Below the pieces are notes generated by a model. That model did no database searches and had not been told where the DNA came from. It saw nothing but the letters and a program-made list of their open reading frames with translations. Below, piece after piece: positions 27,955 to 61,212 of a stretch of 64,000 bases of DNA. The DNA comes from Fidelibacterota bacterium (lineage in GTDB: Bacteria > Fidelibacterota > Marinisomatia > SCGC-AAA003-L08 > TS1B11). Where the stretch lies: positions 156,654 to 220,653 of the forward strand of contig SCKJ01000003.1 in NCBI GenBank assembly GCA_004124875.1. The letters run 5' to 3'. The position numbers and the translations under genes are program-made. Numbering within the stretch: position 1 is the stretch's first letter; each line of letters opens with the position of its first letter.

Positions 27955-28090
27955 AAGCAGCAGTGGCAGTGGCAGGGGGCAGGGTGTGGAAGGAAGAAGG
28001 ATGAAGGAGCATATTGGATATTGGATGTCGGATGCTGGATGACTGCCGCCTGCTACTGATTACTGAACACTGATTACTGATAACTGACAA
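27955..28090. repeat. Intergenic simple-sequence repeat block (CAGTGGCAG; GGATRTYGGATG; (CTGATTACTGA)3)
   Basis: agcagcagtggcagtggcaggggg...ggatattggatgtcggatgctggatgactgcc...ctgattactgaacactgattactgataactgacaact. Confidence 0.75.
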
Positions 28091-28111
28091 CTTCACCCCG
28101 TGCCCTGACTC

Positions 28112-28393: not shown

Positions 28394-28453
28394 TATACTT
28401 AACCCTGAACGGTCAAAAGATATTAATATGAATATTGTTCAGTAGCATCCAAT

Positions 28454-29098
28454 CTATGAAGCAATATCGCTGGCTATTAGAAACATCTGTAATATGTAAT
28501 GTTCATAGAATGAAATAGGTGGTGACGATCTTGGCATTGTCGTATTCAGAAAACCACCAATCCCGAGACGGGGAGGATATGTCAATAATTCATCCCTTAC
28601 GACAGATTTGAACTTATCATGCGAAGTTTCTGACCAGTGTGCTATAGCATTTCTGATTTGTCCCAATCTCGTTAAAATAGTTATACTAGTCTTTATAGGA
28701 TCTTTGAATGGAGACCCATTTTTGAAACATCTATCAGCCATATTGATAACAAAATCAGGATTTCCCCAGGATGCAAAATCTCGAGATAATGGTACTACAT
28801 ATTTAGTCGCGGCTAACCTTGTCGGTGGAAATACATACCGAACCGGTGTTTGTCCGTTTATCGATGGTTTTCCTAACAAATAGAGCAGGAACGAGTCTTG
28901 CAGAAATTTTTCATATGCTAGAAAGGATCTGAGGAACGCCAACTCAGTCACCACGTGCCTATGGTGATTCGTAAATCTTGGGATTTTAGAACCAAAATTG
29001 TAGTTTACCCAAGCGTTCGAATTAACAATTAGTCTTTCAGACTCTTTTAAATTGAAATTATAAGAGGCAAGAGCACCATTGAGATCAGTAATTGCCAT
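28454..29098 (-). CDS. HEPN-motif protein (Abi-like), putative RNase effector of the island
   Basis: 214 aa in an AT-rich context. The C-terminal region has an Rx4H HEPN-type motif (LGQIRNAIAHWSETSH). It is co-directional with, and 8 nt downstream of, the DUF262 gene. Confidence 0.45.
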   Translation of the reverse strand: MAITDLNGALASYNFNLKESERLIVNSNAWVNYNFGSKIPRFTNHHRHVVTELAFLRSFLAYEKFLQDSFLLYLLGKPSINGQTPVRYVFPPTRLAATKYVVPLSRDFASWGNPDFVINMADRCFKNGSPFKDPIKTSITILTRLGQIRNAIAHWSETSHDKFKSVVRDELLTYPPRLGIGGFLNTTMPRSSPPISFYEHYILQMFLIASDIAS

Positions 29099-29106
29099 TC
29101 GATGAG

Positions 29107-30255
29107 CTAGGGGATTGCCTCTACTATTAACTTTGAGATATATTTCGTCATGACGGTTCTAGGCCCTGAGTTGACCCAATGTACCCGGCTAGCTGAGTAA
29201 AATTCCTGTTCTGAGGCAGAGAGTTGATCAATTAAGGCAGTCTTTTTTTCTAGCATTTGTAGATCAGTCAGAGCCTCCAGATTATCTCCGATGGCCTCTA
29301 TTTTCTCATATATCTCATATATATAATTGATAGATTCGAGAGCAACCTGAACTTTAGCATGGTCTTTTTTCTTAATGCGTTTCCTATCTTCGTTAAATTC
29401 TTGTAACCCGTATTCCATGTGGTATAAAGCACAAAATAACGGGTAAAAAATCACACGACTGCTAAATTTTGATGATGCGAAGGTTGAGCCAAGTATAGTA
29501 CCAATTTTATCCAATATTGAATAAAAATGTTTCAGCAATTTGTCTTCGTTTGGTACATCCGCATCATATAATCTATAAAACTTGTTTATTAACAATTTCT
29601 GTTTCGATTTAATGCCCTCCACCATTGCGATTAGTAATTCGGATACAAACTCCGCTTCTTGCATCCGCATAATATGTGTTTCTGTGAACATCCCTGTTTC
29701 AATCCAAAACGTATAATATTCCTGGGATATCTCATATACGAGGGACCTAAACGAACCAAAAAAGTTCGCATGACGAAGCTCTTGAGCATTAAGGGTAGTC
29801 CCATAGCTATTGAGCCTAGTAAATATATCAATTACTTCTTTATCGGACATCATTTGGAGCAGGTCCACCACAAACTCATAGTTGTAAAACGAGATCTGGG
29901 TGTCGTCATCAAGGTCCGAAAAATGCATATTCGCATATTCCTTATTGTGGGCCTTGATAATTTTGAAACCATCATTTAGAAAAAGAAACACAGTACTTAA
30001 TCGTTGTTGACCATCCACTATCTCTCTGGCCGTGCGTTTAGATTTTATGTTAATGTCCTGTCTCATATATAGTTTCGGGATAGGCTTCCCTCTGAGGATT
30101 GAATCAATCAGGAATGATCTAGCCTTATCGCTCCAAACTAATCGCCGTTGAAACTTGGGCTGGAGAGTAATCTCGCTCTTATTATTCCATTCTTCAAAAT
30201 CTCTAATACTTATAAGTCGGGTAGCGAATAATTGTGCCATTTTACTGTCAATCAC
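29107..30255 (-). CDS. DUF262 (ParB-like/GmrSD N-terminal domain) protein
   Basis: N-terminal LQPKFQRRLVWSDKARSFLIDSILRGKPIPKLY and the hallmark EIVDGQQRLSTVFLF (DGQQR motif). No HNH/DUF1524 motifs were recognized in the C-terminal half. Confidence 0.8.
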   Translation of the reverse strand: MIDSKMAQLFATRLISIRDFEEWNNKSEITLQPKFQRRLVWSDKARSFLIDSILRGKPIPKLYMRQDINIKSKRTAREIVDGQQRLSTVFLFLNDGFKIIKAHNKEYANMHFSDLDDDTQISFYNYEFVVDLLQMMSDKEVIDIFTRLNSYGTTLNAQELRHANFFGSFRSLVYEISQEYYTFWIETGMFTETHIMRMQEAEFVSELLIAMVEGIKSKQKLLINKFYRLYDADVPNEDKLLKHFYSILDKIGTILGSTFASSKFSSRVIFYPLFCALYHMEYGLQEFNEDRKRIKKKDHAKVQVALESINYIYEIYEKIEAIGDNLEALTDLQMLEKKTALIDQLSASEQEFYSASRVHWVNSGPRTVMTKYISKLIVEAIP

Positions 30256-30292
30256 TTACTTTATTTGCAGAGGCGGAAATATACTGGTTTGA

Positions 30293-31459
30293 CTATAGTC
30301 TTCGCAGTACCAAAATGCGCTCAATAATAGTAGTTTTAGTCTTTCTCCTTGAGCGACGGTTGTCAGGGATTGGATCAGAGAGAATGTCTATCATTTCAAA
30401 TTGATTATTTGTCGAATTAAGAGCTAATTTGCAAAGTAAGTCAGCTGTGTTTTTCGTGGTTCCATTTCTTGCATAGTCTCCGATAATAAGGATGCAATGG
30501 CCCTTTGGTACCAGGTTGCGGTTTATTTCCTTAAACCATGCTCCCATAAAATTCAAATAATTATTACCTCGAGGCGAGAGCCGTTGATCCATTTTTTGCC
30601 AATCAGTTTCACCAAGAAACCAGAGTCGCAGCCGATTATCTCGCCCATAGCTAAGCGTGTCAAAATAGGGTGGACTCGTTATGACCGCATTAATTGAACC
30701 GTTAGGAATGGGCACATAAAGTGACTCCCTGTTCCACACGCGGTAATTATGGTTAGTCCACGAGTTGGGCAGATTTGATCGCCGATACGCTCGTTTAATT
30801 TTTGCAATTAAACGGGAACGGAGATCCCTATAATCATACATTTCTGGAAAATTATCAAAAGGGTATTTGCGGTCCCTCAGATAAGGCACCATATGACTAG
30901 AGGGATAAGATAGAAATCCAGGTCTTTGGTGGTGCAGGATACCAAGCAAGCAAGAAAGAAGAAAATAATCTTTATGTTCCCTTAATACCTGAAAAGCAGC
31001 AACGACTTCACGCAACGTTTCGTTATGAAAAAATGCCCTTACCCATTTGGGCACACGTCGAAGGTCAATACTGGGCGCCTTACTTGCTATCTCTATCAGG
31101 GCGGCCTCTGTATTCTTCAATGCTAATTCCAAGGAAATAGGGGCCTCCAATTTCCCTCTTGTCAACGTGTAAGCATATGGGTTCAAGTCATTTGCCCACG
31201 CAGTTCTCCCAAGTAGTGCGCTTTCAAAGGGAACGACGCCTGATCCCGAGAAGGGGTCGTAGACCACATCTCCTGGCGAAGTAAACTGGTCTATCAAGGC
31301 ATTGGCCATCCCCGTCTTAAGTTTCCCTATATAGGGTGCGAGTTGCTGAAGTGTGTTCTCGCGGCCATTGAATGAGCCTTCCCAAAGCTTGGGATCAACC
31401 CTTGGCGCCTGTTGAGTGTCTTTATTTTTCAAAAGTACAGGCCTTTCGGGGTTTCTCAA
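30293..31459 (-). CDS. Site-specific DNA methyltransferase (amino-MTase; SPPY catalytic motif, N4-cytosine or N6-adenine)
   Basis: AdoMet-binding motif I (VVYDPFSGSGVVPFESALLGRTAWANDLNP) and catalytic motif IV (AVITSPPYFDTLSYG). First gene of the AT-rich island operon. Confidence 0.8.
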   Translation of the reverse strand: MRNPERPVLLKNKDTQQAPRVDPKLWEGSFNGRENTLQQLAPYIGKLKTGMANALIDQFTSPGDVVYDPFSGSGVVPFESALLGRTAWANDLNPYAYTLTRGKLEAPISLELALKNTEAALIEIASKAPSIDLRRVPKWVRAFFHNETLREVVAAFQVLREHKDYFLLSCLLGILHHQRPGFLSYPSSHMVPYLRDRKYPFDNFPEMYDYRDLRSRLIAKIKRAYRRSNLPNSWTNHNYRVWNRESLYVPIPNGSINAVITSPPYFDTLSYGRDNRLRLWFLGETDWQKMDQRLSPRGNNYLNFMGAWFKEINRNLVPKGHCILIIGDYARNGTTKNTADLLCKLALNSTNNQFEMIDILSDPIPDNRRSRRKTKTTIIERILVLRRL

Positions 31460-31552
31460 ATATTACTTAAGAAAAGCCAGTTTTAATAGGACAAGTGGCC
31501 CATTCAAAGGTCTGTGCCTTTATGTATGATCCATCCTCAGTCCCCGCCGCCC

Positions 31553-37819: not shown

Positions 37820-37893
37820 GCCCCGGTAGCTCAGCTGGATAGAGCAACGGCCTTCTAAGCCGTAGGTCATCGGTTCGAATCCGATCCGGGGTA
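37820..37893 (+). tRNA. tRNA-Arg (anticodon TCT)
   Basis: Cloverleaf read by eye: acceptor GCCCCGG/CCGGGGU, D-arm GCUC-AGCUGGAUA-GAGC, anticodon stem ACGGC/GCCGU with loop CUUCUAA, variable AGGUC, T-arm AUCGG-UUCGAAU-CCGAU, discriminator A. CCA is not encoded. Confidence 0.85.
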
Positions 37894-37894
37894 C

Positions 37895-37932
37895 TAAAAA
37901 GAAGAACCCGCGTTTGCGGGTTTTCTTTTTAA
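37895..37932 (+). terminator. Rho-independent terminator after tRNA-Arg
   Basis: aaaaagaagaacccgc-gttt-gcgggttttctttttaat: a GC-rich hairpin followed by a T-run. Confidence 0.7.
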
Positions 37933-37966
37933 TAGTTCGTCTGAGGATGAGAACCTTGGTTCGAGC
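37924..37966. repeat. 43-nt repeat R1 (copy 1). Identical copy at 43502-43544; degenerate copy at about 39723-39760.
   Basis: agttcgtctgaggatgagaaccttggttcgagccggagcgatc occurs identically at both sites. Each copy is adjacent to tRNA-Arg-derived sequence. Confidence 0.8.
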
Positions 37967-38462
37967 CGGAGCGATCACCATTACCCCGCAAACGGCCAGT
38001 ATTGATGGAGAGGACCGCCAGGTATTGGTTTTCTCCTGGCTGGATGCGCAAGGGGAGCCTGTGCATCAGGCGGTGGATATGTCTGACTAGGCAGCGTGCC
38101 TATTGAGGCATTGGCAGATATTCGCGCGACAAAGGGCTGCATATGAATGCAGCCCTTTGTTCATCTGGATGATTGTGTAAACTGCTTTCGTATTTTGGCA
38201 GTAGTTTATACGGTATTATAACTTGATAATGCATGTAATATTACTTAATTTTGGGTGATTATGATTAATCCTAGCAAAAACTGGATTATATTTAATACAA
38301 AACCGAGGAGGTCACCCATGAAACTATCTGCTAACCTGGTATCTATTTGGTCATTCGATCACCCATTAAAGCCATGCTTGTTGTTATATCCTCAAGCGTG
38401 GCTGGTAAAAGATTCAAATCCTTTTCAAAATCACGTCGTAAACCTAGTCCGGAGGAGTGATT

Positions 38463-38645
38463 ATGAGTGGAATGGACAAAGGAAAAACAGGGGAGTCGAA
38501 AGAAGTTCCGGTTGATATTGAGATTATCGAGATTATCGAGATTATCGAAGAAACAGAGACTACTGGAGATATTCAGGACAAATCTACCTATATTGGGGTT
38601 GTTGGGAGACCTGTCCCCCCAAAGATATTGATCTTGAAGCAGTAG
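38463..38645 (+). CDS. Small acidic hypothetical protein with EIIEIIEII repeat (island cargo)
   Basis: GGAGG RBS 7 nt upstream of the ATG. The repeat is encoded by (GAGATTATC)3 at 38516-38545. AT-rich context. Confidence 0.3.
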   Translation: MSGMDKGKTGESKEVPVDIEIIEIIEIIEETETTGDIQDKSTYIGVVGRPVPPKILILKQ

Positions 38646-38734
38646 TACCATTAGAATTCTCGGGCAATTCTCTTTACATGCACCCATCAATGTATCAGAG
38701 GATTGTTCCTTAATATCAATTACTTGAGGTTCTC

Positions 38735-38980
38735 ATGAACGATATATCAGAAGAGAAGAAAATTATATCAGAAGAAAAGAAAATTCGAATTACTGCTGAT
38801 TTTCATCCAGATGCCTATGCAGTACTTAATCGTGTTGCCGACATGCTACACACTAGTAAAGCTGACGCTTTAAGACGAGCACTTGGACTAATCGATTATA
38901 TTCTTACCATTCAATCCAATGGGAGTGAATTAATCATTGAAGAGAAAGGTGGCAAGCGAACCGTAATTAAGACCTTTTAG
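38735..38980 (+). CDS. Ribbon-helix-helix-like small DNA-binding protein (antitoxin/CopG-like)
   Basis: 81 aa. ITADFHPDAYAVLNRVADMLHTSKADALRRALGL resembles an RHH beta-strand-helix-helix pattern. Confidence 0.45.
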   Translation: MNDISEEKKIISEEKKIRITADFHPDAYAVLNRVADMLHTSKADALRRALGLIDYILTIQSNGSELIIEEKGGKRTVIKTF

Positions 38981-39591
38981 ACTGTGGATAGATTATTGCA
39001 AACTGCCTAAAGGAATACGGAGTCAATAATAGCAGAACAAAAGCCAGCAACGCTGGATACGGCACCAGAGAACCCTACAGTCGAAAAAGAAGGATTCGTC
39101 GGGCCCCCTGAAATTAATGTTTCAGGATTCGTCGGGCCGCCTACCAGCCCTGAAATTCATGTTCTTCGCCGTGAAAAAACAAGGAATTATATTATATTTG
39201 CGGTGCTTGGCATGATGGCACTAATTGTCTTTATACCTTATTTAGTACAGCCTAAATCAGATACACATTGGAACCTTTTAATATACGCTCTAAATGGTCT
39301 AACTGGTATTCTTGGAACTAGTATAGCCTTTTACTTTCGGCTGAGGGATAGAGAATAGACAGTCAACGGCGCAAGGCTAAACTGTCTCTCTAGCTAAAGG
39401 GTTGTATTCTTATTTATGAATTGTAAGAGGGAATATTCGATTCATTTATAAATCAATAGCATCTGTATTTATTTCCATAGTTGAAATCGAGGCGTGCCCA
39501 AGAAATCTCGAGACAAACCGCATTATCGGCGTCAGAGTTTCGTCACTCTTTCTTGCCGCCTTTTTTCTTTTGTCGTCGGACAGACCAAGTT

Positions 39592-39663
39592 CTTCTAAGC
39601 CGTAGGTCATCGGTGAGTTGATCCCGCGTAACAAAGTGAAGCGGGGAATCCGATCCGGGGTAC
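39592..39663 (+). pseudogene. Degenerate partial copy of the tRNA-Arg 3' half (anticodon loop to acceptor end) with a 32-nt insertion in the T-loop, followed by a copy of the tRNA terminator (about 39698-39725)
   Basis: cttctaagccgtaggtcatcgg + tgagttgatcccgcgtaacaaagtgaagcggg + gaatccgatccggggtac matches 37849-37892 apart from the insertion. The downstream aagaagaacccgccacggcgggttcttctt mirrors the terminator at 37895-37932. No tRNA 5' half is present. Confidence 0.75.
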
Positions 39664-39934
39664 TCGTCGACAGGCTTTGTGCAGGCGTTTAAGAAGAACC
39701 CGCCACGGCGGGTTCTTCTTAATAGTCTGCCTATGGCTTCGATTCCTTGTTCGAGCCGAGACCCGCGGAATGACGGGCCGAGACTGGTGAGGAGTCATGA
39801 GGTGGCGGCAATCTGTTCTACAGCAGTAGCCTCACACTTCGTACGACCAATTGGACGACAATAGCAATTTATATGTGAGTCGCGATACGAGTTTTGATCT
39901 GCAAGGAACCGACTAATTTGAGTTGGCTGCTCAT

Positions 39935-41461
39935 TCAGCGTAGATTTGGGGGCCGAATATCGTTATCAAGCTTCTGGCCAATCTGAATTACTACTTGAGG
40001 TAACGCCTCAATATCGCCCAGTGTTGTACGAAAATTTACAATGCAGGCTCTCAATAAATATTTTCCGTCCAGTGCTGCGTTCGAGATAAACACCTCGCCT
40101 CCAGCCTGCAGCTGGGTAAGAAGTGATTCGTTCAACTCGTTTAAATAGGCCTCAACTTCTGTGTTTTTATCGGGTAAATCAGTGGGTACGTAGCGGAAGG
40201 TTGTAATACTTAGACTGTGAGACCCAGCCTCGAGATCGGGGGAGTCCTCTGCAATTTGGTAGAGCACTTTTGCCAAGGCAATGTCGTCACCAATCATCTG
40301 GATGTAGCCCTCCTTTCCTACTTGGCGCAATCCTAGCCAAACTTTCAGCGCGCGGAATCCACGAGAATTTTGGAGACCAATTTCATGAAAATTGATAGGC
40401 GGGACATCCTCAGTGCTCGCGAATTTAAAATAGCTTGGGGTATGAGTAAAAGTATCTACCAAGTGCTGGGGATCTCGGACTAGTGCGCAGCCTGCTTCAA
40501 GGGGTGCATAAAGCCATTTATGTGGATCGAGTGCGATTGAATCAGCTTCGGATAATCCCTTCAACTGCACAGAAGCATCGGGCAACATAGCAGCGGGCGC
40601 ACCGTATGCGCCATCTACGTGAAACCACAGATCGTATTTTTTACAAAGGGCCGCAATTGCGGGTAGATCATCAATCGCGCCGGTGCCTACAGTTCCCGCT
40701 GCACCCACAACCATAAATGGCAAAAATCCCTCGTTGCGATCGGTAATGATTTTATTTTCCAGCGCAGCCATTTTCATTTTCTGATCGGAATCTGTCTCAA
40801 TCCAGCGAATTGAGTTACCGCCCATTCCGAACAGCTCGGCTGCTTTATCTATCCATGTATGAGTCTCTTCGGACACGTAAGCGAGGAGCTTCGGATGATC
40901 GCTACTAGCCAAGCCCTCCGTACTAATATCCCATGATGCTTTTGAATTTCGGGCTGCGAGGAAACAGACAAAATTTGCCATGTTGCCGCCACTCACCATA
41001 AGTCCGCCGCAGGTTCTTGGATAACCGATGAGGTCAGCGATCCAGCGAATCAATTGAGCCTCGATTTCACTCGCGATCGGTGATAGAATCGCCGCCCCTA
41101 CATTTGGGTTCACCGCACCAGCCAATAGGTCAGCCAGAATGCCTATAGGAGCTGCAGAGGAGGTGATATATCCCCAAAACCTTGGATGACCATTGTGCAA
41201 CGAATTGTCAAATAGCAGATCAGACACTTCAATGAGCAGATCTTTTGCGGCTGATCCGTTCTCAGGCAAGACGTCCCCACCTAACAGTTCACGAATAGCT
41301 AAATGAGATTTCCCGCTAGTCACTGGTCGCTGCGGCAGATCATCGAGAAACTCGGCGATCTGGTCTACGAGCTGGTGGCCGAGCCTACGAAATTCGCTAC
41401 CGTGAATCTCTAGTGGCATCTCTCGAGCACGTAACTGCATCCTTTGATCATTCTCGATCAT
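39935..41461 (-). CDS. PLP-dependent group II amino-acid decarboxylase (aromatic-L-amino-acid/diaminobutyrate decarboxylase family)
   Basis: 508 aa. SGGNMANFVCFLAARN, the PLP-lysine region SIALDPHKWLYAPLEAGCALVRD, and a HVDGAYGAPAA motif. Embedded in AT-rich island DNA. Confidence 0.8.
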   Translation of the reverse strand: MIENDQRMQLRAREMPLEIHGSEFRRLGHQLVDQIAEFLDDLPQRPVTSGKSHLAIRELLGGDVLPENGSAAKDLLIEVSDLLFDNSLHNGHPRFWGYITSSAAPIGILADLLAGAVNPNVGAAILSPIASEIEAQLIRWIADLIGYPRTCGGLMVSGGNMANFVCFLAARNSKASWDISTEGLASSDHPKLLAYVSEETHTWIDKAAELFGMGGNSIRWIETDSDQKMKMAALENKIITDRNEGFLPFMVVGAAGTVGTGAIDDLPAIAALCKKYDLWFHVDGAYGAPAAMLPDASVQLKGLSEADSIALDPHKWLYAPLEAGCALVRDPQHLVDTFTHTPSYFKFASTEDVPPINFHEIGLQNSRGFRALKVWLGLRQVGKEGYIQMIGDDIALAKVLYQIAEDSPDLEAGSHSLSITTFRYVPTDLPDKNTEVEAYLNELNESLLTQLQAGGEVFISNAALDGKYLLRACIVNFRTTLGDIEALPQVVIQIGQKLDNDIRPPNLR

Positions 41462-41711
41462 TATCTATACCTCAATTCCAATTTGGGGGAGATTTATAAA
41501 TCACAATCTAATCAAAGTTAAACATTGATCCGGAATTATACCATATCCGGGCGGTATCGTTGTGCGCATCAGAGCATTGTGGACCACTCGTCGGTAATTG
41601 CCAATAAACACTTTAGTGGTCGCCTTAGTCACCGCTGGTCACCATTGGCCAAAATTCTGCCTCGTTTTCCAACCTCTTTTTTGGCCTGTCGAGGAGACCC
41701 CAATGATCTGA

Positions 41712-41749
41712 AAATCCATGTGTCGGCGGTTCAATTCCGTCCCGAGCCA
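41712..41749 (+). other. tRNA/tmRNA-like 3' fragment (T-arm plus acceptor 3' strand), probable attachment-site remnant
   Basis: GTCGGCGGTTCAATTCCGTCCCGAGCCA-cta has a T-stem/loop and 3' acceptor resembling the 3' end of tmRNA or a tRNA. No matching 5' acceptor strand lies within 400 nt. The antisense ORF 41625-41825 (..RDGIEPPT..) is the usual artefact of reading through such a sequence. The 30 nt upstream (cgaggagaccccaatgatctgaaaatcca) are repeated at 43283-43314. Confidence 0.5.
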
Positions 41750-41756
41750 CTATAAG

Positions 41757-41790
41757 AAAGGCCCCTTTTCTCGTCGGGAAGAGGGGCCTT
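41757..41790. terminator. GC-rich palindromic hairpin (possible terminator)
   Basis: aaggcccct-(15 nt)-aggggcctt, a 9-bp perfect stem. A T-run (atgcattttc) follows on the plus strand only. Confidence 0.35.
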
Positions 41791-42280
41791 ATGCATTTTC
41801 TAGAGACATTTTTGAGGAGCTTCAAAAGTGGTCAGAATGGGGTACCTATAGGGCGTTTTCTACTCGTTTTCCTTACCCGTTTTTGAAGCGAGTTATTAAT
41901 TTTGTCTAGAACCGATTAAAGGGAATATTAGCTAGAAGACTCTGCATTCTCACGAGCTCACCACTTGATTGAGCTTCACACTCACCAGGTTTTATACATT
42001 ATCTTGTGGGTTTTATCGGGCTGACTGATCCGCCAACAAAGAGCGCTCCAACAGAGGAAGCGTTTTCACCTGAAACCACGGCACCAAATGGTATCTGTGT
42101 CATGAATAGGATGCCCAGAAAGGCTCTCTTAACTTTAATCTCAACCTACCCGAAACGATTTGACGATGTACAGAGTACTACTCCATTAAATATTTGATTC
42201 AAATCTTTACATTTCTGTGACATTAGCATGACAACGTGCTGTTAAACATTTGATAGATTAAGGCAACCAGGGAGGTAATT

Positions 42281-43024
42281 GTGCTACATCGCTTTGGACC
42301 AGTCAGTCTTTTATTGTGCTTGCTGTCTAGCTTCCTTACGGCTCAAAATGTTTCTGAGTCTAAGTACGAAGCAAGTTACAATCCAATGCTCTGGGTGTCT
42401 TACAATCCAAAATCTGACGACATTTTTAATCAGACCTTCACCGTGATAACGAAAAAGATGATTTCGAAAAATGGCTTCGAGTTAATGCGTGGCTACGGGA
42501 TTGGACATCTTGAACATAAGAGCCGCAGATTCCCTTCAGACTTGAGACTCAGTCCAAGAACTATTCGCAGGATACCTGACAAAGAATGGAGCAGACTGAC
42601 AATGGTTTACCAGGAGATGCGGGCCGAACTAGCTAGCGATGGAATCCGGCTTGGGCTGGTGGGTACCTTAGGAATAGGCTATGCAAAATATAGCGGGCAG
42701 CTTTTTGAAACAGTAACGTACTATAACGATATATTGGATGAAACTGAATATGATCAAAGGTTTAAATCATCCTATGACGCGAGTGGAGCCACCTACTTCG
42801 CCAGTCTAGGAGCGCGATTGAATCTTGGGGGGATTGTTGTGGAACTGCGCAAGAATTACGGACCTGGCCACGACCAAACGATTAGATACATATCCTTTAA
42901 TCTTGGCTATGAGACGAGTTCCCTGGGTATATCCATGATTCCTCCTTTCCTCGGGATAGTCGCAGCCATTATGATGAGTCAGCTGACATTTGACTTCGGG
43001 GATTCCTTTAGTGGAGCCCTATAG
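42281..43024 (+). CDS. Hypothetical secreted/outer-membrane beta-rich protein (island cargo)
   Basis: Signal peptide (MLHRFGPVSLLLCLLSSFLTAQ), alternating hydrophobic beta-strand-like segments, and an aromatic C-terminus. AT-rich codon usage. Confidence 0.45.
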   Translation: MLHRFGPVSLLLCLLSSFLTAQNVSESKYEASYNPMLWVSYNPKSDDIFNQTFTVITKKMISKNGFELMRGYGIGHLEHKSRRFPSDLRLSPRTIRRIPDKEWSRLTMVYQEMRAELASDGIRLGLVGTLGIGYAKYSGQLFETVTYYNDILDETEYDQRFKSSYDASGATYFASLGARLNLGGIVVELRKNYGPGHDQTIRYISFNLGYETSSLGISMIPPFLGIVAAIMMSQLTFDFGDSFSGAL

Positions 43025-43586
43025 GATGAAAAGAAGCTTACAATGGCGGCCTTTCAGTATAGCTAGATTGCCTAACTATTTCGCTTTAATCTTTTTTCAC
43101 ACAACTTTTATTCACGGGAACAATTCTGGGCTGATGGGTCAATTCCCGCCTTTCTTCAGGTTAGTTACGTGTACACCAAATATGCTTCAAGACTGATAAA
43201 TCGACATCATCTGGATAGGTCACCTTAAGTCAGCATTGATCAAATTACTGCCACGTTTCCCATACTCTTTTTTATTTTGTCGACGAGACCCAAATGATCT
43301 GAAAATCCACTGCTTAGCGTTCTATTTGGCGTGAGCGGTTAATAATGAGGACCTCAAGAAGGCTTACTAAAGACCGTCCTACAGGTTATTATCTGCTTCC
43401 TACCCCTCTTTTGTTCTGTGGCCGTTATTTAATAGGAACTGGCGCCAGTTTTAGCCAGTGCGTGCCACAAAGTGCCAGAATTGGACATCACTTTATAGCA
43501 CAGTTCGTCTGAGGATGAGAACCTTGGTTCGAGCCGGAGCGATCCCGACATTTCGGGAGAGCGGAGACCTATTGAGCGTAGCGAAA

Positions 43587-43607
43587 TGAATCCGATCCGG
43601 GGTACGA
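43587..43607 (+). other. Isolated copy of the tRNA-Arg 3' end (att-like remnant)
   Basis: gaatccgatccggggtac matches 37875-37892. It is preceded at 43502-43544 by repeat R1. Confidence 0.7.
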
Positions 43608-54499: not shown

Positions 54500-55237
54500 A
54501 TGTCGGCTGAGGCCCGGCTTATGATGCGTGCTATCAATCCACCTTTATGCTTTGTCATGCTGGCTCTATGCGCCTGTCGCCAACCGGTGGAGCCAGCGGG
54601 AGCAAAGATTGACTGGACCGCCGAGAACTCCATTGTCGCCTATGGCACCAGCCTGACCGCCGGCATCATCGAGCCCGACAGCAGTTATCCAGCGTTCCTG
54701 GGGGAGAAACTGCTCATTGAGGTGGTGAACCGGGGGAGGATCGGCGCCACCTCAGCCTGGGGTGTGGCCCATATCGATACCGTTTATATCACCAAGCCTG
54801 TGCTGGTGCTCCTGGAGTTTGGCGCCAACGATTTTCTGCAGCAGATCGACATTGACACGGCCGCCAAAAATATCGCCTGGATCATTGAACAGATTCAGGC
54901 CTATGGCGCCGAGGTGGCCCTGCTCAACTTCGCCCATCCCGACATGATTGACAGCACTAACCTCCATTGGGTTTTTCAGGATCTCGTCCCCAACATCGGA
55001 GCTGATCCACAGCCTACAATGATTTCAATCGGTTTTGCATATGATGCCATGATCGACTCCCTGGCCGTGGCCTACGATCTGGAGATTGAAGACTATCTAT
55101 ATGAAGGTATCGCTTGGGACCCGGCCTTCCTGGCATGGGATGGGCTGCACCCCAACGCCGCTGGAAATCGCCTCATGGCCGGCAATGTACTCGACGCCTT
55201 CAAGGAGACTTTTGAGCAGAGCGATATGGTGAAATGA
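54500..55237 (+). CDS. SGNH/GDSL-family hydrolase (lipase/esterase), secreted
   Basis: Block I VAYGTSLTAG (GxSxT), block III GANDF, block V DGLHPN. Confidence 0.7.
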   Translation: MSAEARLMMRAINPPLCFVMLALCACRQPVEPAGAKIDWTAENSIVAYGTSLTAGIIEPDSSYPAFLGEKLLIEVVNRGRIGATSAWGVAHIDTVYITKPVLVLLEFGANDFLQQIDIDTAAKNIAWIIEQIQAYGAEVALLNFAHPDMIDSTNLHWVFQDLVPNIGADPQPTMISIGFAYDAMIDSLAVAYDLEIEDYLYEGIAWDPAFLAWDGLHPNAAGNRLMAGNVLDAFKETFEQSDMVK

Positions 55238-55340
55238 GGGAGGCCACAGGCATCAGCCGGACCGGGAGTGCCCTTCGGCCAGCTCAGGGTGACAGTACAG
55301 GGCAGACCTTTGTAGAACGATGACTTCAGGATTTTATGTA

Positions 55341-57164
55341 ATGCGCAAAGATAATTTTCGAAATATCGCCATCATTGCCCACGTTGATCATGGCAAAACG
55401 ACCCTCGTTGACGGCCTGCTGCGCCAGAGCGGCACCTTTCCGGCCCACCAACAGGTGACCGACCGCGTCATGGATTCCCTGGACCTGGAGAAGGAGCGCG
55501 GCATCACCATTACCGCCAAGAACACGGCTATCCGCTACGGGGAGGTGAAGATCAACATTGTCGATACTCCCGGCCACGCCGATTTCTCGGGCGAAGTGGA
55601 GCGCTCCCTGAATCTGGTCGATGGCGCGTTGCTGCTGGTCGATGCCAGCGAGGGCCCCTTGCCGCAGACTCGTTTCGTGCTCAGAAAGACGCTCGAGAAA
55701 AATCTGCCGGTCATTCTGGTCATCAACAAAATTGATCGCCAGGATGCGCGCATTGATGAAGTGGTCAGCGATGTTTACGACCTGTTCATCGATCTTAATG
55801 CCACCGATGAGCAGATAGAATTCCCCATCATCTACACCAACGCCAGGGCCGGGGAGGCGCATTTCGAGGTGGGCGACGACTCCACCGATCTGACGCCCCT
55901 GTTCACGACCATCTTGGAGAAAATTCCCGGCCCCCTGGCGGATGACAGCCAGCCGCCCCAATTCCTCATCACCAGCCTCGATTACGATCCCTATGTCGGT
56001 CAGGTGGCCATCGGCCGCATGCACAACGGTATCCTGGCCCTGAACCGGTCCTATGCCTTGTGCGGCGCGAAATCGGTGACCCGCAATATCAAGTTTTCGG
56101 CCATCTATACGTTCGAGGGTTTGAAAAAGGTGAAAGTCGACCAGGTGTTTTCAGGGGATATTATTGCCGTCGCAGGTGTTGATAATTTTGCCATAGGCGA
56201 CACCATCACCGATGAGGATGACCCCCAGCCCCTGACCCGCATCGAAGTGGATGAACCGACGCTTTCCATGCTTTTTTACGTAAACAGTTCCCCCACGGCC
56301 GGGCAGGAGGGGCAGTATCTCACTTCGCGGCATATCGGGGAAAGACTGCATAAAGAGATGCTCAGCGACGTGTCGATTCACGTTGCAGAGACTGGCCGGC
56401 CGGATATCTTCGAGGTTAAGGGGCGGGGCGAGCTGCAAATGGCCATTCTGATAGAGACCATGCGACGCGAAGGGTTCGAGTTCATGGTCTCCAAACCGCA
56501 GGTCATTACCCGCGAGGAGGGGGGCCGGTTGCAGGAGCCGATGGAGCGGGTCTACCTTGATATCCCCGAGGACCATGTGGGTGTCGTCACGGAGAAGTTG
56601 TCCAGGCGCAAGGGCCGCATGACCAACCTTGAGAATCATGGTCACGGCCGGGCCATGCTGGAATTCCTGATCCCCTCGCGGGGCCTCATCGGCTTCCGCA
56701 GCCAGTTTATGACCGACACCAAAGGCGCCGGCATCATGAATTCCCTGTTCGACGGCTACGCAGACTGGTTCGGCCCCATCCCCCAACGCTCCAGCGGCGC
56801 CCTGGTGGCCGACCGGGCAGGCAAAGCGACCCCTTATGCCGCCTATGGCATGGCTGACCGCGGGGAGCTCTTTATCGAGACGGGGACCATGGTCTACGCG
56901 GGCATGATCATTGGCGAACGCAACCGTGAGATCGACCTGGATGTGAACATCACCCGCGAGAAAAAATTGACCAACATGCGGGCGGCTTCATCGGATGCCA
57001 CCGTGACCCTGCGGCCACCCAGAGCGCTGTCGTTAGACCAGTCGATCGAATTTATCGCCGAAGATGAACTGCTGGAGGTGACGCCCAAGTCGATCCGTCT
57101 GCGCAAGCGGGAGCTCGACGCCGGCAAGCGCATCTCTGCCCGCCGGAGAGAAAAGAAGGGATGA
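55341..57164 (+). CDS. typA: Ribosome-associated translational GTPase TypA/BipA
   Basis: [25 protein letters not shown] and NKIDR G-motifs; domain order like EF-G/LepA. Start placed at MRKDNFRN. Confidence 0.9.
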
Positions 57165-57217
57165 GGGGGGTGCTCCTTCGAGGTCGACCGTATCCAGGGC
57201 ACGGCCAATCCATTATC

Positions 57218-58327
57218 TTAAGGCGTGGGTAACCACACTGGGAAGCTGTCTTCCCTGTAGTAGTTGCTAACGGCCACTTGATTACTTCCATCCGGCGCCA
57301 TTAGAAAAATTTCATAATCCGAACTCATATACCGCCTCGATGAAAATACGATGGCCTCACCCGCGGGTGACCATGAAGGCGATTCATCACGGCGATCTGC
57401 ATTTGTCAATTGAGTCTTTCCCGTGCCATCACGATTCATAATAAAGACTTCCGCGTCTCCATCTTCCCACGAAACATATACAATACGGTTGCCATACGGC
57501 GACCACGCAGGTTGTTCATTACCACCGCGAGGGAATCCAGTATCCCAGTGGTGGGGATTAACTGTATCCGTCAACTGAATAAGTCCACTACCATCAGCGT
57601 TCATGATGAATATTTGGCTTCCATCTTCCCATGCTCTCATGCCCGTAAATAAAATCTGGGAACCGTCCGGTGACCAGATTGGCCGGCCAGCCCTCAATGT
57701 TGAGTCAGTAAGCGGCAACTTGCCAGATCCATCAGAATTCATCACAGATATTCTGCCATCTGAGCAATACGCAATTTGCGCACCATCAGGCGCCCATGCG
57801 GGGCAACTGTTATTCCCCGACGAGGTGAGTGCCTGCAATCCATTCCCTTCAGGATCAATCAACAGTATGTCTTTGTCATCGGTATCCGCAGCCCTGTTTC
57901 GCACGAAGGCAATCTGACTGCCATCAGGCGCCCAAGCAGCTGCGCCACAATACCGCTCACCGGTCGCCAGTAGGAGCAGACTCTGGGTATCCATGTCCAG
58001 AAGATACAATTCATAGTCGTGGCTTTGATCATTCGCTATGAATAATACCTTTGACCCATCTGGAGACGGCACAGGCGGAGCACACCGTACCGGCATATCT
58101 ACCAGTTGCTGTTGGTTACTTCCATCGGCCTCCATCCTGAAGAGACTCCAATCTGATCTATCCGGTGTGCGGCGAGATACGAAAACGATATCCCCTTCGA
58201 TGGGCGGTGGAGTGAATGAACCTGTTGTATGATCGATTTCACAACCGGAAAAGAAGAGACTCAGAATTATTAATCCCGGAAAATATCGGTTCTGGAAGTG
58301 ATTGATATTCATCCCCTTGGGTCTCAT
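57218..58327 (-). CDS. TolB-like periplasmic beta-propeller (PD40 repeat) lipoprotein
   Basis: Lipoprotein-like N-terminus (LSLFFSGCEI) and repeated PD40 motifs (SPDGSKVLF, APDGSQIAF, APDGAQIAY, SPDGSQILF, SPYGNRIVY). Confidence 0.7.
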   Translation of the reverse strand: MRPKGMNINHFQNRYFPGLIILSLFFSGCEIDHTTGSFTPPPIEGDIVFVSRRTPDRSDWSLFRMEADGSNQQQLVDMPVRCAPPVPSPDGSKVLFIANDQSHDYELYLLDMDTQSLLLLATGERYCGAAAWAPDGSQIAFVRNRAADTDDKDILLIDPEGNGLQALTSSGNNSCPAWAPDGAQIAYCSDGRISVMNSDGSGKLPLTDSTLRAGRPIWSPDGSQILFTGMRAWEDGSQIFIMNADGSGLIQLTDTVNPHHWDTGFPRGGNEQPAWSPYGNRIVYVSWEDGDAEVFIMNRDGTGKTQLTNADRRDESPSWSPAGEAIVFSSRRYMSSDYEIFLMAPDGSNQVAVSNYYREDSFPVWLPTP

Positions 58328-58477
58328 TAATAGTATTGATACAGCCTCATGAATAACTTAATCATATTGGATGAATTCCACCATTTAATTTTTCTGAACG
58401 ATCTTTCTATAACCTCAAATGAGTATGCGCTATCAACGCATCGATGATCACGTTTGCAGAAAATTGGATACCATTCA

Positions 58478-58650
58478 GGGCCACCGTGACCCTGCGGCCA
58501 CCGCGAATGCTGTCGCTGGACCAGTCGATCGAATTTATCGCCGAAGATGAACTGCTGGAGGTGACGCCCAAGTTGATCCGTCTGCGCAAGCAGGAGCTCG
58601 ACGCCGGCAAGCGCATCTCTGCCCGCCGGAAAGAGAAAAAGGGGTAGGGG
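58478..58650 (+). pseudogene. Duplicated 3' fragment of typA (last ~57 codons, ~93% nt identity to 56996-57175)
   Basis: [55 protein letters not shown] versus the typA C-terminus [55 protein letters not shown]. The nucleotide alignment runs into the GGGGG(T)AGGGGG tail. Confidence 0.8.
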
Positions 58651-58759
58651 GCAGCGCTCTGGATGATCCCTTCGATCCGCCCGCTGGCGGATCGAAGGGC
58701 AAGCCTTACTTGAGCAGTACCATCTTTCGATTCTGCTACCTGAATGACTCAGGATGATT

Positions 58760-61069
58760 TTATTTAAGTAAAACCATCTTTATCGACTTGCTGAACCCTG
58801 GAGATACCATGCGGGCCACATAGACCCCCGAGGGCAAGGTCGCTCCATTTATGTCCCGGCCGTTCCAGGTGATGGTATGATATCCGGCTTTATGATACCC
58901 TTCAGCCGGTCTGCTGACCTCCCGCCCGGCCAAGTCATAGATCGTCAGATACAGGTCGCCTGCCTCGGGCATGTCAAACCGCAAGGTGGTGCTGGGGTTG
59001 AACGGATTTGGGTAGTTGGGATGCAGGGCGTACCTCTCCGGCAGCCCGGCGCCGGCTACAATCCCCAGACTGGAGAGCGCTACCGCCGCGGAGGCTAAAC
59101 CCAGGTTGTTGTGGATATCCTCTGCCACCACCACATAGGCATGGTCCAGGCCATCTGTCGGCATGGCGATGGAGGCCTCAGTGCTGATGGTATAGGCCAG
59201 CGAGGCCCCAGGATCAAAACTTCCAGCTATGCTCTCAAATATGTGGTAGCCCATGAGGTCCGGGGCATACACCGGGGCCCACGTGAAGGTTATCAGCCCG
59301 GCGGAGATGCTCGCTGAAACGCTGCCCACTGAATCGGGGGCCAGGTTGTCCACGGAGTAGCCTGAATCGGGCTCGGACGAGTAAAAGATGGGGCCGCCGC
59401 TCGGGCTTATATCGTCATAAGAATGGGCGGTCACCCTGTAAGTGAACCAGGGTGTGCCGGCTTTGCTGCTATCTGCCAGAGTGGAGGCCACAAAATAGTA
59501 TACCGTATCACCCGTGGCATCGAAAGACCCCAGGGCATCCCACGTCTCATTACCCAACTTCCGCCAGATTGAGTAGCTGCTAATAAGTAGTTCAATGTTG
59601 TTGGAATCCCGCACGGCCAAAGACAGGGTGTCGAGCCAACTGGCCTGGAAGCGCAGCCTTACCTGCCCTCCCTGGTCAGCCGGGATATCCATAATCGATG
59701 CCACTTCAGGGGCGGGGACGACGGCCAAAGGGTCGTCATTGACAAAGGCGAACCTGGACGAATTCTCCCATACCGAGTTAACCCCGTCCCATCTTTCCAC
59801 CAAAGAATGGGCCAAGGTGTAGCTGTCACTCCAGGTGTTGGTGAACCGGGATAGGGGCGCCCAGCTGGCGGAAGCGACGTCCCACGTGGAGAATAGCCGG
59901 GTCAGCCGGCGGTCCTGCGTATCATAAGTATATATAAATTGAAACCCGGAAATGGCAGTCGTACTATAGGTGTTGTTGAAAAAATCAAAGTACCCTTCGT
60001 TCTGGAATAGTGTCAGATTTCCGTTGTCATCATAGTTATAAGTAGTTAGGGAAGCGAGGTTCCATATGCCGGCAACATCATCCCAAACTTCACGGCTGCT
60101 ACTGGCCAGGTTGCTCCCGTCGTAGGTAAGGGTAAACCTGTAGCGGTCAATCCACGCCGGTAAGTCGCTGTCCCAGGTCTGCCAGAGAAAAGACAAGAGA
60201 TTGCCGCTGGTATCATAGGTATAGGCAGTAAAGAGCAATGAATTGACATAGTCGCTGATTGCCGCGTCCCAGGTCTCGTGAAGGTAAGTGGTCAATTGGT
60301 TGTTCGTATAGGTCCAGGTATCCCGTGAATCAGTGACCCAGGTCAAGGTGGTGGTATCCCAGCGCTCATTAAGGTCCTGGGTGTGGTTGCCGTTGGCGTC
60401 ATAGCTGCTGGTCCACCGGAAGCCACCCGTCTGCTCACCGGTGTCGGTGTTCCAACTTTCGCTCTGGTAAAAAGTCCGGTTGTTGTTGGCATCATAGGTC
60501 TGGGTAACAGAGAAATACTTCGCCCAGGCGCCAGTATTGATGTTCCAACTTTCGAACTGATAGTACGTCAAATTGCCATTGGCATCGTAGGTATAAAATG
60601 CCTGGATATTGTTTGTCCAGCTAAAAAAGGTGCCGTCGAAGTTTTCGAAAATAAGATGAGTCAGGTTTTCGGCGGCGTCCCAGGTGTAACCGTTACTGCG
60701 AGTTGTGCGGAATGCCGAGCCATCCCAGGTCTGATTAAAATAGACTTCAGTACGGGCGGCGGCGGTTTTGGCCAGCCTGAAAGGTGATCCCGGGTTGAGG
60801 AAGAGGTGGGGCGCCTCATCAAACAGGGCTCCGGTCCCTTCGCCAAAAAGTAAATCCATGTCACCGGAGGCAAGGGCCTCCAGGGTCATTTCTCCCAGGA
60901 GGGTCGGGATCAGCGCAGCATCCAGCGGGCCGTGAAGTTTGAGCCGCATGATCTGCTCAGGCGATTGATACCCGGCCAGCTCAGCAGGGAGCAAGGCCTT
61001 TCCCTGGGCAAGGGCGGCATCTGCCCAAAAACATACCGATAACGCGAGGATTGTTGGCAATTTCTGCAT
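58760..61069 (-). CDS. T9SS C-terminal sorting-domain protein with tandem W/YD-rich beta repeats and a probable Ig-like domain
   Basis: Signal peptide MQKLPTILALSVCFWADAALAQ (start moved from 61165 to 61069). About 12 degenerate repeats of the form xxW(D/N)xxxxxWxxxxRxxxTYDxNGN. The C-terminus (HPNYPNPFNPSTTLRFDMPEAGDLYLTIYDLAGREV...GVYVARMVSPGFSKSIKMVLLK) is a T9SS type-A sorting domain. Confidence 0.7.
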   Translation of the reverse strand: MQKLPTILALSVCFWADAALAQGKALLPAELAGYQSPEQIMRLKLHGPLDAALIPTLLGEMTLEALASGDMDLLFGEGTGALFDEAPHLFLNPGSPFRLAKTAAARTEVYFNQTWDGSAFRTTRSNGYTWDAAENLTHLIFENFDGTFFSWTNNIQAFYTYDANGNLTYYQFESWNINTGAWAKYFSVTQTYDANNNRTFYQSESWNTDTGEQTGGFRWTSSYDANGNHTQDLNERWDTTTLTWVTDSRDTWTYTNNQLTTYLHETWDAAISDYVNSLLFTAYTYDTSGNLLSFLWQTWDSDLPAWIDRYRFTLTYDGSNLASSSREVWDDVAGIWNLASLTTYNYDDNGNLTLFQNEGYFDFFNNTYSTTAISGFQFIYTYDTQDRRLTRLFSTWDVASASWAPLSRFTNTWSDSYTLAHSLVERWDGVNSVWENSSRFAFVNDDPLAVVPAPEVASIMDIPADQGGQVRLRFQASWLDTLSLAVRDSNNIELLISSYSIWRKLGNETWDALGSFDATGDTVYYFVASTLADSSKAGTPWFTYRVTAHSYDDISPSGGPIFYSSEPDSGYSVDNLAPDSVGSVSASISAGLITFTWAPVYAPDLMGYHIFESIAGSFDPGASLAYTISTEASIAMPTDGLDHAYVVVAEDIHNNLGLASAAVALSSLGIVAGAGLPERYALHPNYPNPFNPSTTLRFDMPEAGDLYLTIYDLAGREVSRPAEGYHKAGYHTITWNGRDINGATLPSGVYVARMVSPGFSKSIKMVLLK

Positions 61070-61212
61070 GAGGACCCCTGGAGTTTGCCGTTGTGACGGC
61101 AGCATAACACTGGCAGCGTCATTTGACTGAACACGAAGAGTACAGTCTGGATTTTGATTATGCAATAGAAATTTATTTCGTTTTCTTCTACCCGCTGGCG
61201 GCCGACAATAGT

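Follow-up and report, generated by a model that had tools for sequence, protein, structure and literature searches.

A diverged repeat of the typA 3′ end flanks a PD40 lipoprotein gene in a Marinimicrobia genome

Introduction

How does a genome come to carry the end of a housekeeping gene twice, with the second copy displaced downstream behind a gene on the opposite strand? The question is raised by the typA locus of the window, by which we mean the whole stretch of 64,000 nucleotides analysed here. The window derives from the Marinimicrobia (SAR406), abundant, uncultured ocean bacteria for which we know of no experimental genetics and no well-described mobile elements. A first-pass annotation, made from the letters of the window alone, had read the locus as an insertion that used the 3′ end of typA as its target and regenerated it, in the manner of the islands that target tRNA genes.

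Results

The locus comprises the following features, in window coordinates.

55341-57164, plus strand: typA/bipA, translational GTPase, intact, 607 aa from ATG (Pfam GTP_EFTU, EFG_C and BipA_C)
56997-57168, plus strand: copy A, the last 56 codons of typA, TGA and 4 nt; completes the functional gene
57169-57217, no strand: 49-nt spacer from the typA stop to the PD40 stop (convergent genes); no conservation with any PD40 ortholog locus
57218-58312, minus strand: the cargo, a gene encoding a PD40 (TolB-like) beta-propeller lipoprotein (Pfam PD40, E 3.7e-34)
58313-58468, minus strand: AT-rich 5′ leader/promoter region of the PD40 gene, moving as a unit with it (homology with ortholog locus L087)
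58469-58479, no strand: 11-nt unassigned junction sequence TACCATTCAGG between leader homology and copy B
58480-58651, plus strand: copy B, displaced typA 3′ fragment of 56 codons, TAG and 4 nt, inside a 67-aa ORF (58444-58647)
58668-58699, no strand: perfect 14-bp GC-rich hairpin CCCTTCGATCCGCC-CGCT-GGCGGATCGAAGGG (fold z-scores -2.27 on the plus and -3.42 on the minus strand)
58706-58727, minus strand: 22-nt remnant (KMVLLK*) that repeats the final codons of the T9SS gene next to it
58760-61165, minus strand: downstream neighbour, gene for a T9SS C-terminal-sorting-domain protein (Pfam Por_Secre_tail/FlgD_ig)

The typA gene itself is complete. Its longest ORF starts at 55320, giving a product of 607 or 614 aa, and the protein scores 876.5 bits against NCBIfam TIGR01394 (equivalog cut-off 757.3) in an alignment over profile positions 1-592 of 594; an identical protein of 607 aa is deposited as MCH7574481.1. 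A repeat search joined 56997-57168 and 58480-58651 into one 172-nt direct repeat with 92% identity, 1483 nt from start to start. Ungapped counting gives 14 mismatches and BLAST gives 12 mismatches and one gap over 173 nt; mismatches at 57035 and 57091 bound a run of 55 identical nucleotides. The duplication of roughly 93% identity noticed earlier is thus real, although its boundaries (56996-57175 and 58478-58655) were drawn a few bases too generously at each end. The other long repeats in the window lie only inside repetitive genes or at a tRNA-Arg island, so the typA-tail repeat is far beyond chance.

The stop codons of the two copies are in register, TGA in copy A and TAG in copy B, and homology ends 4 nt past them. 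Beyond that point the flanks are unrelated: local alignment does no better than shuffled sequence (221 of 500 shuffles score as well), and an extension of the repeat past the stop into the hairpin was rejected as not above chance. The hairpin starts 16 nt after copy B, and no comparable structure follows copy A (fold z-score +1.08).

Copy B is no gene of its own. The ORF that contains it, annotated by NCBI as hypothetical protein IIA59_05060, aligns with the Pfam BipA_C profile over positions 70-109 of 110 only and consists of 12 unrelated codons joined to a 57-codon typA tail. The first-pass annotation was right that a fragment of the typA 3′ end had been left behind as a pseudogene, but those first 12 codons are not typA: they belong to the PD40 leader and are common to the ortholog locus L087. 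For the same reason we rejected a AGAAAATTG match to the left of copy B as typA; it too is part of the leader and is found in L087. The annotation of this 67-aa “hypothetical protein” should say that it is a pseudogene fragment.

Between the two copies lie 1311 nt (57169-58479), in which the PD40 gene on the minus strand is the sole credible ORF, as had been reported. Its product has 364 aa (369 aa from an ATG at 58327) and a signal/lipobox of LSLFFSGC. Against the TolB equivalog TIGR02800 it scores 167.6 bits, below the cut-off of 343.15, and only profile positions 158-366 match; we therefore call it a PD40 propeller lipoprotein, not TolB. The match to TolB of the Tol-Pal system is confined to the propeller part, with nothing aligned to the N-terminal domain. 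GC content is 49.5% in the gene, against 55.8% for the window, and 36.5% in the stretch upstream of it (58313-58479), which bears out the AT-rich leader described before. Neither ORF listing nor Pfam revealed a recombinase gene or a remnant of one in the insert. Rfam gave 0 matches at E ≤ 1 over 56800-58900, and apart from one marginal match (E 8.9e-4) the PADLOC models found nothing in the insert, so that no defence system was assigned.

Nucleotide homology with L087 runs from the PD40 stop (57220) through 58468. Orthologs of the PD40 protein, at 70–78% amino acid identity, occur in unrelated contexts: on six other contigs the gene and its leader, at 47–50% GC, sit between unrelated flanks of 40–68% GC. 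The gene plus leader behaves as a discrete unit. No typA lies near the ortholog in the five ortholog contigs with flanking sequence, and we found no donor in which typA is followed directly by the PD40 gene. A PD40 profile search yielded only two more ortholog contigs among metagenome contigs and no match among viral contigs. A PD40 protein of 40% identity on a 394-kb contig (P0021) was set aside, as it lies in an unrelated genome and in an ordinary context. A further TolB-like insertion beside a duplicated gene end, which the first-pass annotation had proposed looking for, is absent from the window. In L086 and L091 a truncated T9SS-gene tail abuts the PD40 leader, a hint of a recurring process.

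On the far side of the insert, the T9SS gene encodes a protein of 744–801 aa, depending on the start, that scores 30 bits against NCBIfam TIGR04183 (cut-off 23). Judged from its sequence and fold, the hairpin was probably the original bidirectional terminator of typA and this convergent neighbour. The insertion leaves typA without a hairpin terminator and hence converging on the PD40 gene, an arrangement in which expression of both may be affected. The KMVLLK* remnant at 58706-58727 differs from the end of the T9SS gene at five nucleotides, all five synonymous, and may likewise be the trace of a process that recurs.

The typA-PD40-copy B arrangement is present in the NCBI MAG contig JADFRX010000003.1 (397 kb), in ENA k141_233665 (193 kb), in a 1682-bp ENA scaffold spanning window positions 57094-58775 and in a 1431-bp Logan contig spanning 57118-58548. 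These four assemblies are essentially identical to the window and thus represent one population, probably with overlapping read sets. This leaves room for an assembly artefact, in which the typA tails of two co-occurring strains were chained in one contig; the short contigs L081 and L082 do have a break within the repeat, and near its end L081 shows at 57109 the base of copy B. However, each novel junction (57169 and 58479/58480) has copy-specific variants no more than 24 nt away, both junctions recur in the four assemblies made with different assemblers, including the Logan contig, whose ends lie inside copy B and inside copy A, and L081 covers the whole of copy B and reaches the T9SS gene. 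We consider an artefact highly improbable.

Among about 15 billion proteins there was no relative above 90% protein identity. At that level the TypA cluster has 1 member and the PD40 cluster consists of two start-codon versions of one gene; with no members from outside the population, the clusters offer no strain variants. An empty site, with typA followed directly by the T9SS gene, had been suggested as a check in related genomes and was not found: the nearest species have different neighbours, and no close relative exists in the databases searched. Neither JGI metagenome contigs nor protein clusters contained an empty-site or polymorphic variant of the population, and for that reason we infer the direction of the event. 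JGI metagenome contigs and viral contigs contained no match to a degenerate 38-nt pattern of the typA tail.

The divergence between the copies bears on their history. Their coding differences comprise 7 synonymous and 5 non-synonymous changes (pN/pS 0.26), which departs from neutral drift of both copies (binomial P = 0.021, on 12 substitutions only) and is not significant if copy B alone is assumed to have drifted neutrally. The low pN/pS, the kept frame and the position of the stop would be expected of two tails that diverged in two lineages, each as part of a working typA. The copies are mutual closest relatives, 92% identical to each other and 80–86% identical to the nearest species (L001-L003). 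When the copy-B peptide was used as query, only short proteins were returned, and none of the typA tails was nearer to copy B than copy A is (best 89%); a sliding-window comparison of typA with L001-L003 showed no recombination breakpoint upstream of copy A.

That the copies are nearer to each other than to any other known typA is also what one would see had the duplication arisen in place, with break repair or template switching copying 172 bp of the resident typA as a target duplication and the copies then diverging by 8%. When polarised against L001-L003, copy B has 3 synonymous and 3 non-synonymous changes, as neutral decay could produce. We nevertheless regard an origin in place as improbable, given a pN/pS of this kind with frame intact and stop in register despite the 8% divergence, and given that no mechanism is known for a target duplication of 172 bp, or of 261 bp or longer as in the second case described below.

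A second typA-tail duplication is found in another Marinimicrobia lineage (L093/L094), with a different opposite-strand gene and a different breakpoint, and is independent of the case in the window. In L093, the first copy of the typA tail is followed by a 704-nt insert, holding an opposite-strand SCO4226-like gene with an AT-rich leader, and then by a second copy of 86 codons. The genome L002, 96–97% identical to L093 in the flanking genes, has an uninterrupted typA. The second copy is collinear with the end of that gene to about 10 nt past the stop and differs from it at 14 positions, with the amino acid changed at only 4, whereas the proximal copy, over 66 nt, has a single difference. With the differences of the displaced copy mostly synonymous and the proximal copy nearly identical to L002, the pair points to two alleles rather than to the decay of one, which again argues against duplication in place.

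With L095 included, the breakpoints in typA fall at codon 559 in the window, at or before codon 529 in L093 and at codon 541 in L095, and these cases, three in all, have no junction motif in common; variable breakpoints without a motif fit random illegitimate joins. Each of the three inserted genes is encoded opposite to typA. The occurrence of three such cases at typA, with different cargo, also hints that the process may recur. None of 78 species-level typA loci carries a typA-end duplicate of at least 18 nt. One apparent typA fragment (P0175) was rejected as a frameshifted long-read typA.

Discussion

We tentatively favour, at a probability of roughly 0.45, the reading that DNA from a related lineage recombined with the typA end as its anchor, the other end being closed by an illegitimate join or the DNA having entered as a Campbell-style circle. 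A single recombination event would have added a 1.3-kb module, the PD40 lipoprotein gene with its AT-rich leader, downstream of typA, anchored on the last 172 bp of the gene. The donor would have been a closely related Marinimicrobia lineage, and the typA tail on the incoming DNA would, as copy A, now complete the working gene; the resident tail, together with the original terminator hairpin, would have been pushed 1.48 kb downstream, where the tail may survive as the dead copy B. As the copies are each other's closest relatives, the source was presumably a near relative, close enough for RecA-type pairing. A linear fragment could have entered by homology-facilitated illegitimate recombination (HFIR), with typA as the anchor and an illegitimate join at the other end; for a circularised fragment a Campbell-type single crossover would be equivalent. 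At the junctions, incoming and resident DNA share 172 nt at 92% identity. We think that host homologous recombination on this anchor is the most likely route and a dedicated integrase a less likely one. A point against the homology-anchored route is the orientation of the three cargos, all opposite to typA, which a random process does not predict.

Such events have precedents. HFIR and Campbell-type insertion-duplication are known from naturally transformable Acinetobacter, Pseudomonas stutzeri and Streptococcus pneumoniae and from the single-crossover integration of suicide plasmids. They combine one homologous anchor with one non-homologous junction, need no recombinase of the element and have junctions that vary in position. 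The anchor is duplicated on both sides if a circle integrates or if the illegitimate join falls inside the anchor; in experiments with linear fragments, the usual outcome is a deletion of recipient DNA, not a duplicated anchor. Neither is known to have been documented in Marinimicrobia, and at typA neither a donor nor a junction microhomology was observed.

The main rival is a site-specific element without an integrase gene, a remnant or non-autonomous element resembling the CIMEs, with the typA tails as attL and attR, an att site that mimics the typA tail and a tyrosine or serine integrase located elsewhere or since deleted. Textbook elements of this kind have the layout seen here, with direct repeats that match the target 3′ end, a regenerated target and a displaced fragment. 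The same site was used in a second lineage with different cargo, and cargo orientation relative to typA is the same in all three cases. Moreover, the tRNA-Arg island in the window has a duplicated 17-nt tRNA end and a perfect 43-nt direct repeat, yet no integrase in the ORFs tested, so that integrase-made islands that lost their integrase do occur in this genome. Against such an element stand the lack of any recombinase gene or remnant in the insert, duplication boundaries in typA that differ among cases with no common junction motif, a repeat that is 8% diverged over 172 nt instead of a short identical core, the absence of duplicates from the 78 surveyed loci and the absence of a match in the viral contig collection. 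On balance we regard it as rather unlikely.

A parallel of this type is in Streptococcus thermophilus, where ICESt1, ICESt3 and the CIMEs insert at the 3′ end of fda and regenerate the gene end. CIMEs keep their flanking att repeats and lack recombination genes, and the att sites of ICESt1 and ICESt3 have short identical cores and a cognate integrase. The likeness to the typA case is the regenerated 3′ end of a housekeeping gene; the difference is that neither core nor integrase was found at typA.

In tycheposon-type islands of marine genomes, part of the target 3′ end is present as a direct repeat on either side of the element, and old partial copies persist as degenerate remnants (bioRxiv 10.1101/2020.12.28.424599). 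The typA locus resembles these and other tRNA/tmRNA islands, of which the tRNA-Arg island in the window is an example, in the partial 3′-end copy, the regenerated target and the remnants. It differs in that typA is protein-coding, the 172-nt repeat is 8% diverged, the cargo is a single gene, there is no integrase and breakpoints differ. Of the first-pass reading of an insertion at the typA 3′ end, then, the complete typA and the leftover 3′ fragment stand; the analogy to tRNA-targeting islands, which are integrase-driven, is not supported in the form given, as the 1.3-kb insert holds neither an integrase nor any other gene beside the cargo and the cases share no junction motif.

Searching the literature for integration at typA gave mostly false matches on “typable”. 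In Xenorhabdus and Photorhabdus, typA borders regions of genomic plasticity (PMC3091717). These bacteria belong to a different phylum, and the passages concerned report no duplication of the typA end.

The window and L093 would thus exemplify one concrete way in which Marinimicrobia gain single genes, by recombination anchored on the conserved typA tail, leaving a datable scar. The typA insertion overturns no current understanding; this type of scar is already known, and the instance is new. It is quite unlikely that Marinimicrobia more generally carry an undescribed class of integrase-less single-gene modules, each a gene with its AT-rich leader and always on the strand opposite to its target. 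Such modules would integrate at the 3′ end of convergent genes of the host, each supplying a new end for the gene.

At island borders lies a multi-copy module whose boundary is fixed (37977-38175 in the window, and also in L093), a further hint of a recurring process. Both displaced typA fragments end in TAG, a stop codon used by 17 of 77 typA genes.

Structure of the typA-tail repeat

A repeat search of the window returned one 172-nt direct repeat, whose copies (56997-57168, copy A; 58480-58651, copy B) align without gaps and with 14 mismatches. The duplication of the typA 3' end described in the first-pass annotation is therefore real, and the fragment said to be left behind is copy B, contained in a 67-aa ORF that is matched by just the final 40 positions of the Pfam BipA_C model. 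The intact typA scores above the NCBIfam TypA equivalog cut-off. ORF and Pfam searches found a single credible gene between the copies, the opposite-strand PD40 gene already noted there; its upstream stretch (58313-58479, 36.5% GC) is the AT-rich leader that had been proposed. The protein was rejected as TolB: its score of 167.6 bits falls below the cut-off of 343, and the match is limited to the propeller part.

Features at the typA locus
55341-57164, plus strand: typA
56997-57168, plus strand: copy A, the last 56 codons of typA, its stop codon and 4 nt
57218-58312, minus strand: PD40 beta-propeller gene (364 aa, lipoprotein-type signal; Pfam)
58444-58647, plus strand: 67-aa ORF holding copy B
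58706-58727, minus strand: KMVLLK* remnant, 22 nt, repeating the final codons of the downstream gene for a T9SS-sorted protein

Homology between the copies stops 4 nt past the stop codons, which are in register (TGA in A, TAG in B); local alignment of the sequence beyond was no better than shuffles. The copies differ by 7 synonymous and 5 non-synonymous substitutions (pN/pS 0.26), giving a binomial P of 0.021 against neutral drift of both copies (n = 12). When changes were polarised with the three nearest species, copy A had 3 synonymous and 1 non-synonymous, and copy B had 3 synonymous and 3 non-synonymous plus the stop change; on these counts alone, copy B may have decayed neutrally. The copies are mutual nearest relatives, 92% identical to each other versus 80-86% to the three nearest species, and a sliding-window comparison with those species found no recombination breakpoint farther upstream in typA. 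Duplication of the typA tail in place is an improbable origin for the repeat.

Is the arrangement an artefact?

The window sequence is carried by NCBI contig JADFRX010000003.1 (Candidatus Neomarinimicrobiota MAG GCA_022561075.1), and a 193-kb ENA contig (k141_233665) has an identical arrangement. Both junctions are present in an ENA scaffold of 1682 bp that covers window 57094-58775, and also in a 1431-bp Logan contig that begins within copy B and ends within copy A. Because neither novel junction is more than 24 nt away from copy-specific bases, ordinary k-mers tie the insert to an A-type tail on one side and a B-type tail on the other. We do not think that the arrangement is an artefact, and misassembly is a highly implausible explanation for the repeat. 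The assemblies are essentially identical and therefore represent one population, not independent occurrences. In 16.6 kb, the window departs from JADFRX010000003.1 and k141_233665 at a single position, 50648, inside a 1191-aa Peptidase_S74-domain gene (C in the window, T in both contigs).

Identity of the resident tail

A perfect 14-bp GC-rich hairpin (58668-58699; fold z-score -2.3 on one strand and -3.4 on the other) starts 16 nt after copy B, and fold analysis found no comparable hairpin after copy A. Six bases beyond it, and 32 nt past the T9SS gene stop, lies the KMVLLK* remnant, which differs from that gene's own last codons (IKMVLLK*) by five nucleotides, all synonymous. Because the hairpin follows copy B with the remnant beyond it, 58480-58727 looks like the relic of an older convergent pair, comprising a typA tail, a shared terminator and a T9SS-gene tail. 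We infer that the resident tail was displaced and survives as copy B, with copy A as the incoming one. The remnant is also a second gene-tail relic in the typA-T9SS intergenic region.

The PD40 gene and its leader

PD40 orthologs (70-78% identity) were found on six short contigs, and none of the five with flanking sequence has typA nearby. In the closest, L087, nucleotide homology begins at the PD40 stop codon, spans the gene and its leader and ends at window position 58468, leaving 11 nt before copy B; gene and leader thus make up a single unit. Codons 1-12 of the 67-aa ORF (MITFAENW...) are the antisense strand of the leader, not typA sequence, and L087 reads MMIKFAENS.... PD40 genes stay at 47-50% GC inside flanks of 40-68% GC. 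On two of these contigs (L086, 495-590; L091, 221-301), the leader is adjoined on the opposite strand by the truncated tail of a T9SS C-terminal-domain gene (...SKSIKMLLLK*), with about 28 codons following an in-frame stop, a geometry equal to that of the window's typA fragment; neither contig showed a second copy of this tail. IS630-like transposase remnants lie 1.1-1.8 kb from this site on L086.

Relatives of the locus

Among 80 species-level typA loci, none has a PD40 homolog of meaningful score near typA (the sole match, at 25% identity and E 4e-4, is a marginal one about 4 kb from it in L009), and tblastn detected no second typA tail in any of them; no duplicate of the typA end of at least 18 nt occurs in the 78 with a near full-length typA match. 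The downstream neighbour differs in each of the closest species (87-89% TypA identity). Neither the TypA nor the PD40 90% cluster has members outside the population among about 15 billion proteins, leaving no strain-level relative, and a degenerate DNA pattern had no match in JGI metagenome contigs. In Xenorhabdus, typA borders a variable region, apparently with no tail duplication described (PMC3091717).

A search with the copy-B peptide found a stand-alone 86-aa typA tail within L093, a contig from another Marinimicrobia lineage that provides a second case, independent of the window.

Features of contig L093
1-66: copy 1 of the typA tail, TGA stop (contig starts inside the tail)
704-nt insert: leader of 43% GC and SCO4226-like gene (291-575, strand opposite to typA)
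774-1041: copy 2 of the typA tail, TAG stop

Other genes, then GDSL and HlyIII, follow copy 2; the right-hand junction is confirmed by L094, a Logan contig of independent origin. In L002, a typA locus whose GDSL and HlyIII share 96-97% identity with those of L093, typA is uninterrupted. Copy 2 is collinear with the L002 typA end to about 10 nt past the stop and differs at 14 of 261 nt, only 4 of which alter an amino acid; copy 1 differs at 1 of 66. As in the window, the resident tail seems to be the distal fragment, and the proximal one resembles a second allele. In L093 the typA breakpoint falls at codon 529 or earlier, versus codon 559 in the window. A third case is possible in L095, a contig of 2.5x coverage in which typA meets unrelated AT-rich sequence at codon 541. 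Another candidate, P0175, was discarded as a frameshifted long-read typA.

Both displaced fragments end in TAG (window 58645-58647; L093 1039-1041), and TGA is the stop of the intact typA beside each and in the three nearest species. The window TAG can be read as the loss of one G (TGAGGGGG to TAGGGGG). Since TAG ends 17 of the 77 typA genes of the wider set, the shared stop may be coincidence. Relative to the neighbouring GDSL lipase gene, typA is inverted between the window (54500-57164, in tandem, GDSL first) and L002 (6001-9837) and L093 (781-4244), where the two are convergent and enclose a variable set of low-GC genes (a 281-aa ORF in L002; a 246-aa ORF and a DUF2971 gene in L093).

Mechanism of insertion

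Single-crossover integration of any molecule carrying a typA tail gives the observed structure. Host homologous recombination would act on the typA anchor, together with an illegitimate join, and the incoming molecule could be linear or circularised. We tentatively prefer this homology-anchored route, at a probability of roughly 45%. It is favoured by the absence of a recombinase gene in both inserts, the single cargo gene in each, breakpoints that differ and share no motif, long diverged repeats rather than a short identical core, and the absence of a scar in the 78 species-level loci. Against it, no donor with typA beside PD40 was found, the cargo genes in all three cases have the same orientation relative to typA, and a classic tRNA-Arg island in the same window makes clear that integrase-less remnants of site-specific islands exist in this genome.

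The first-pass annotation had likened the insertion to tRNA-targeting islands. The layout does resemble those islands and tycheposon remnants; the likeness fails for the recombinase gene and the constant boundary. The absence of these two defining features weighs against a site-specific element whose integrase was lost or lies elsewhere, which we regard as less likely.

Features of the tRNA-Arg island (37820-43606)
37820-37894: tRNA-Arg(tct)
37934-37976 and 43502-43544: perfect 43-nt direct repeat
39935-41461, minus strand: PLP-dependent decarboxylase, cargo
41628 and 43219: 91-nt repeat, 79% identical
43590-43606: repeat of the last 17 nt of the tRNA (AATCCGATCCGGGGTAC)

This island has a GC content of 40-48%, and the ORFs tested in it contain no integrase domain.

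The typA scar is of an already known kind. Its layout is also like that of ICE/CIME insertions into the fda 3' end of Streptococcus thermophilus, and of insertion-duplications by single-crossover or homology-facilitated illegitimate recombination. To our knowledge, no such scar events have been described in the Marinimicrobia phylum. The typA scar would carry more weight if the gene-tail fragments that recur at island borders in these genomes turned out to arise from one dedicated process.

Other regions of the window

A module of roughly 200 nt (37977-38175), ending ...TIT(P/L)QTASIDGEDRQVLVFSWLDAQGEPVHQAVD..*, begins exactly where the 43-nt repeat of the tRNA-Arg island ends. It is 81% identical to L093 3139-3338, in the typA-GDSL island of that lineage, and recurs at least twice more in the MAG (IIA59_02160, IIA59_11295), each time continued differently at the N terminus; a mobile element family may have this module as its conserved end. 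A second region, 28000-31500, has low GC (37-45%) and is probably a defence island.

Genes in 28000-31500
29107-30255, minus strand: GmrSD-type restriction endonuclease
30293-31459, minus strand: DNA methyltransferase
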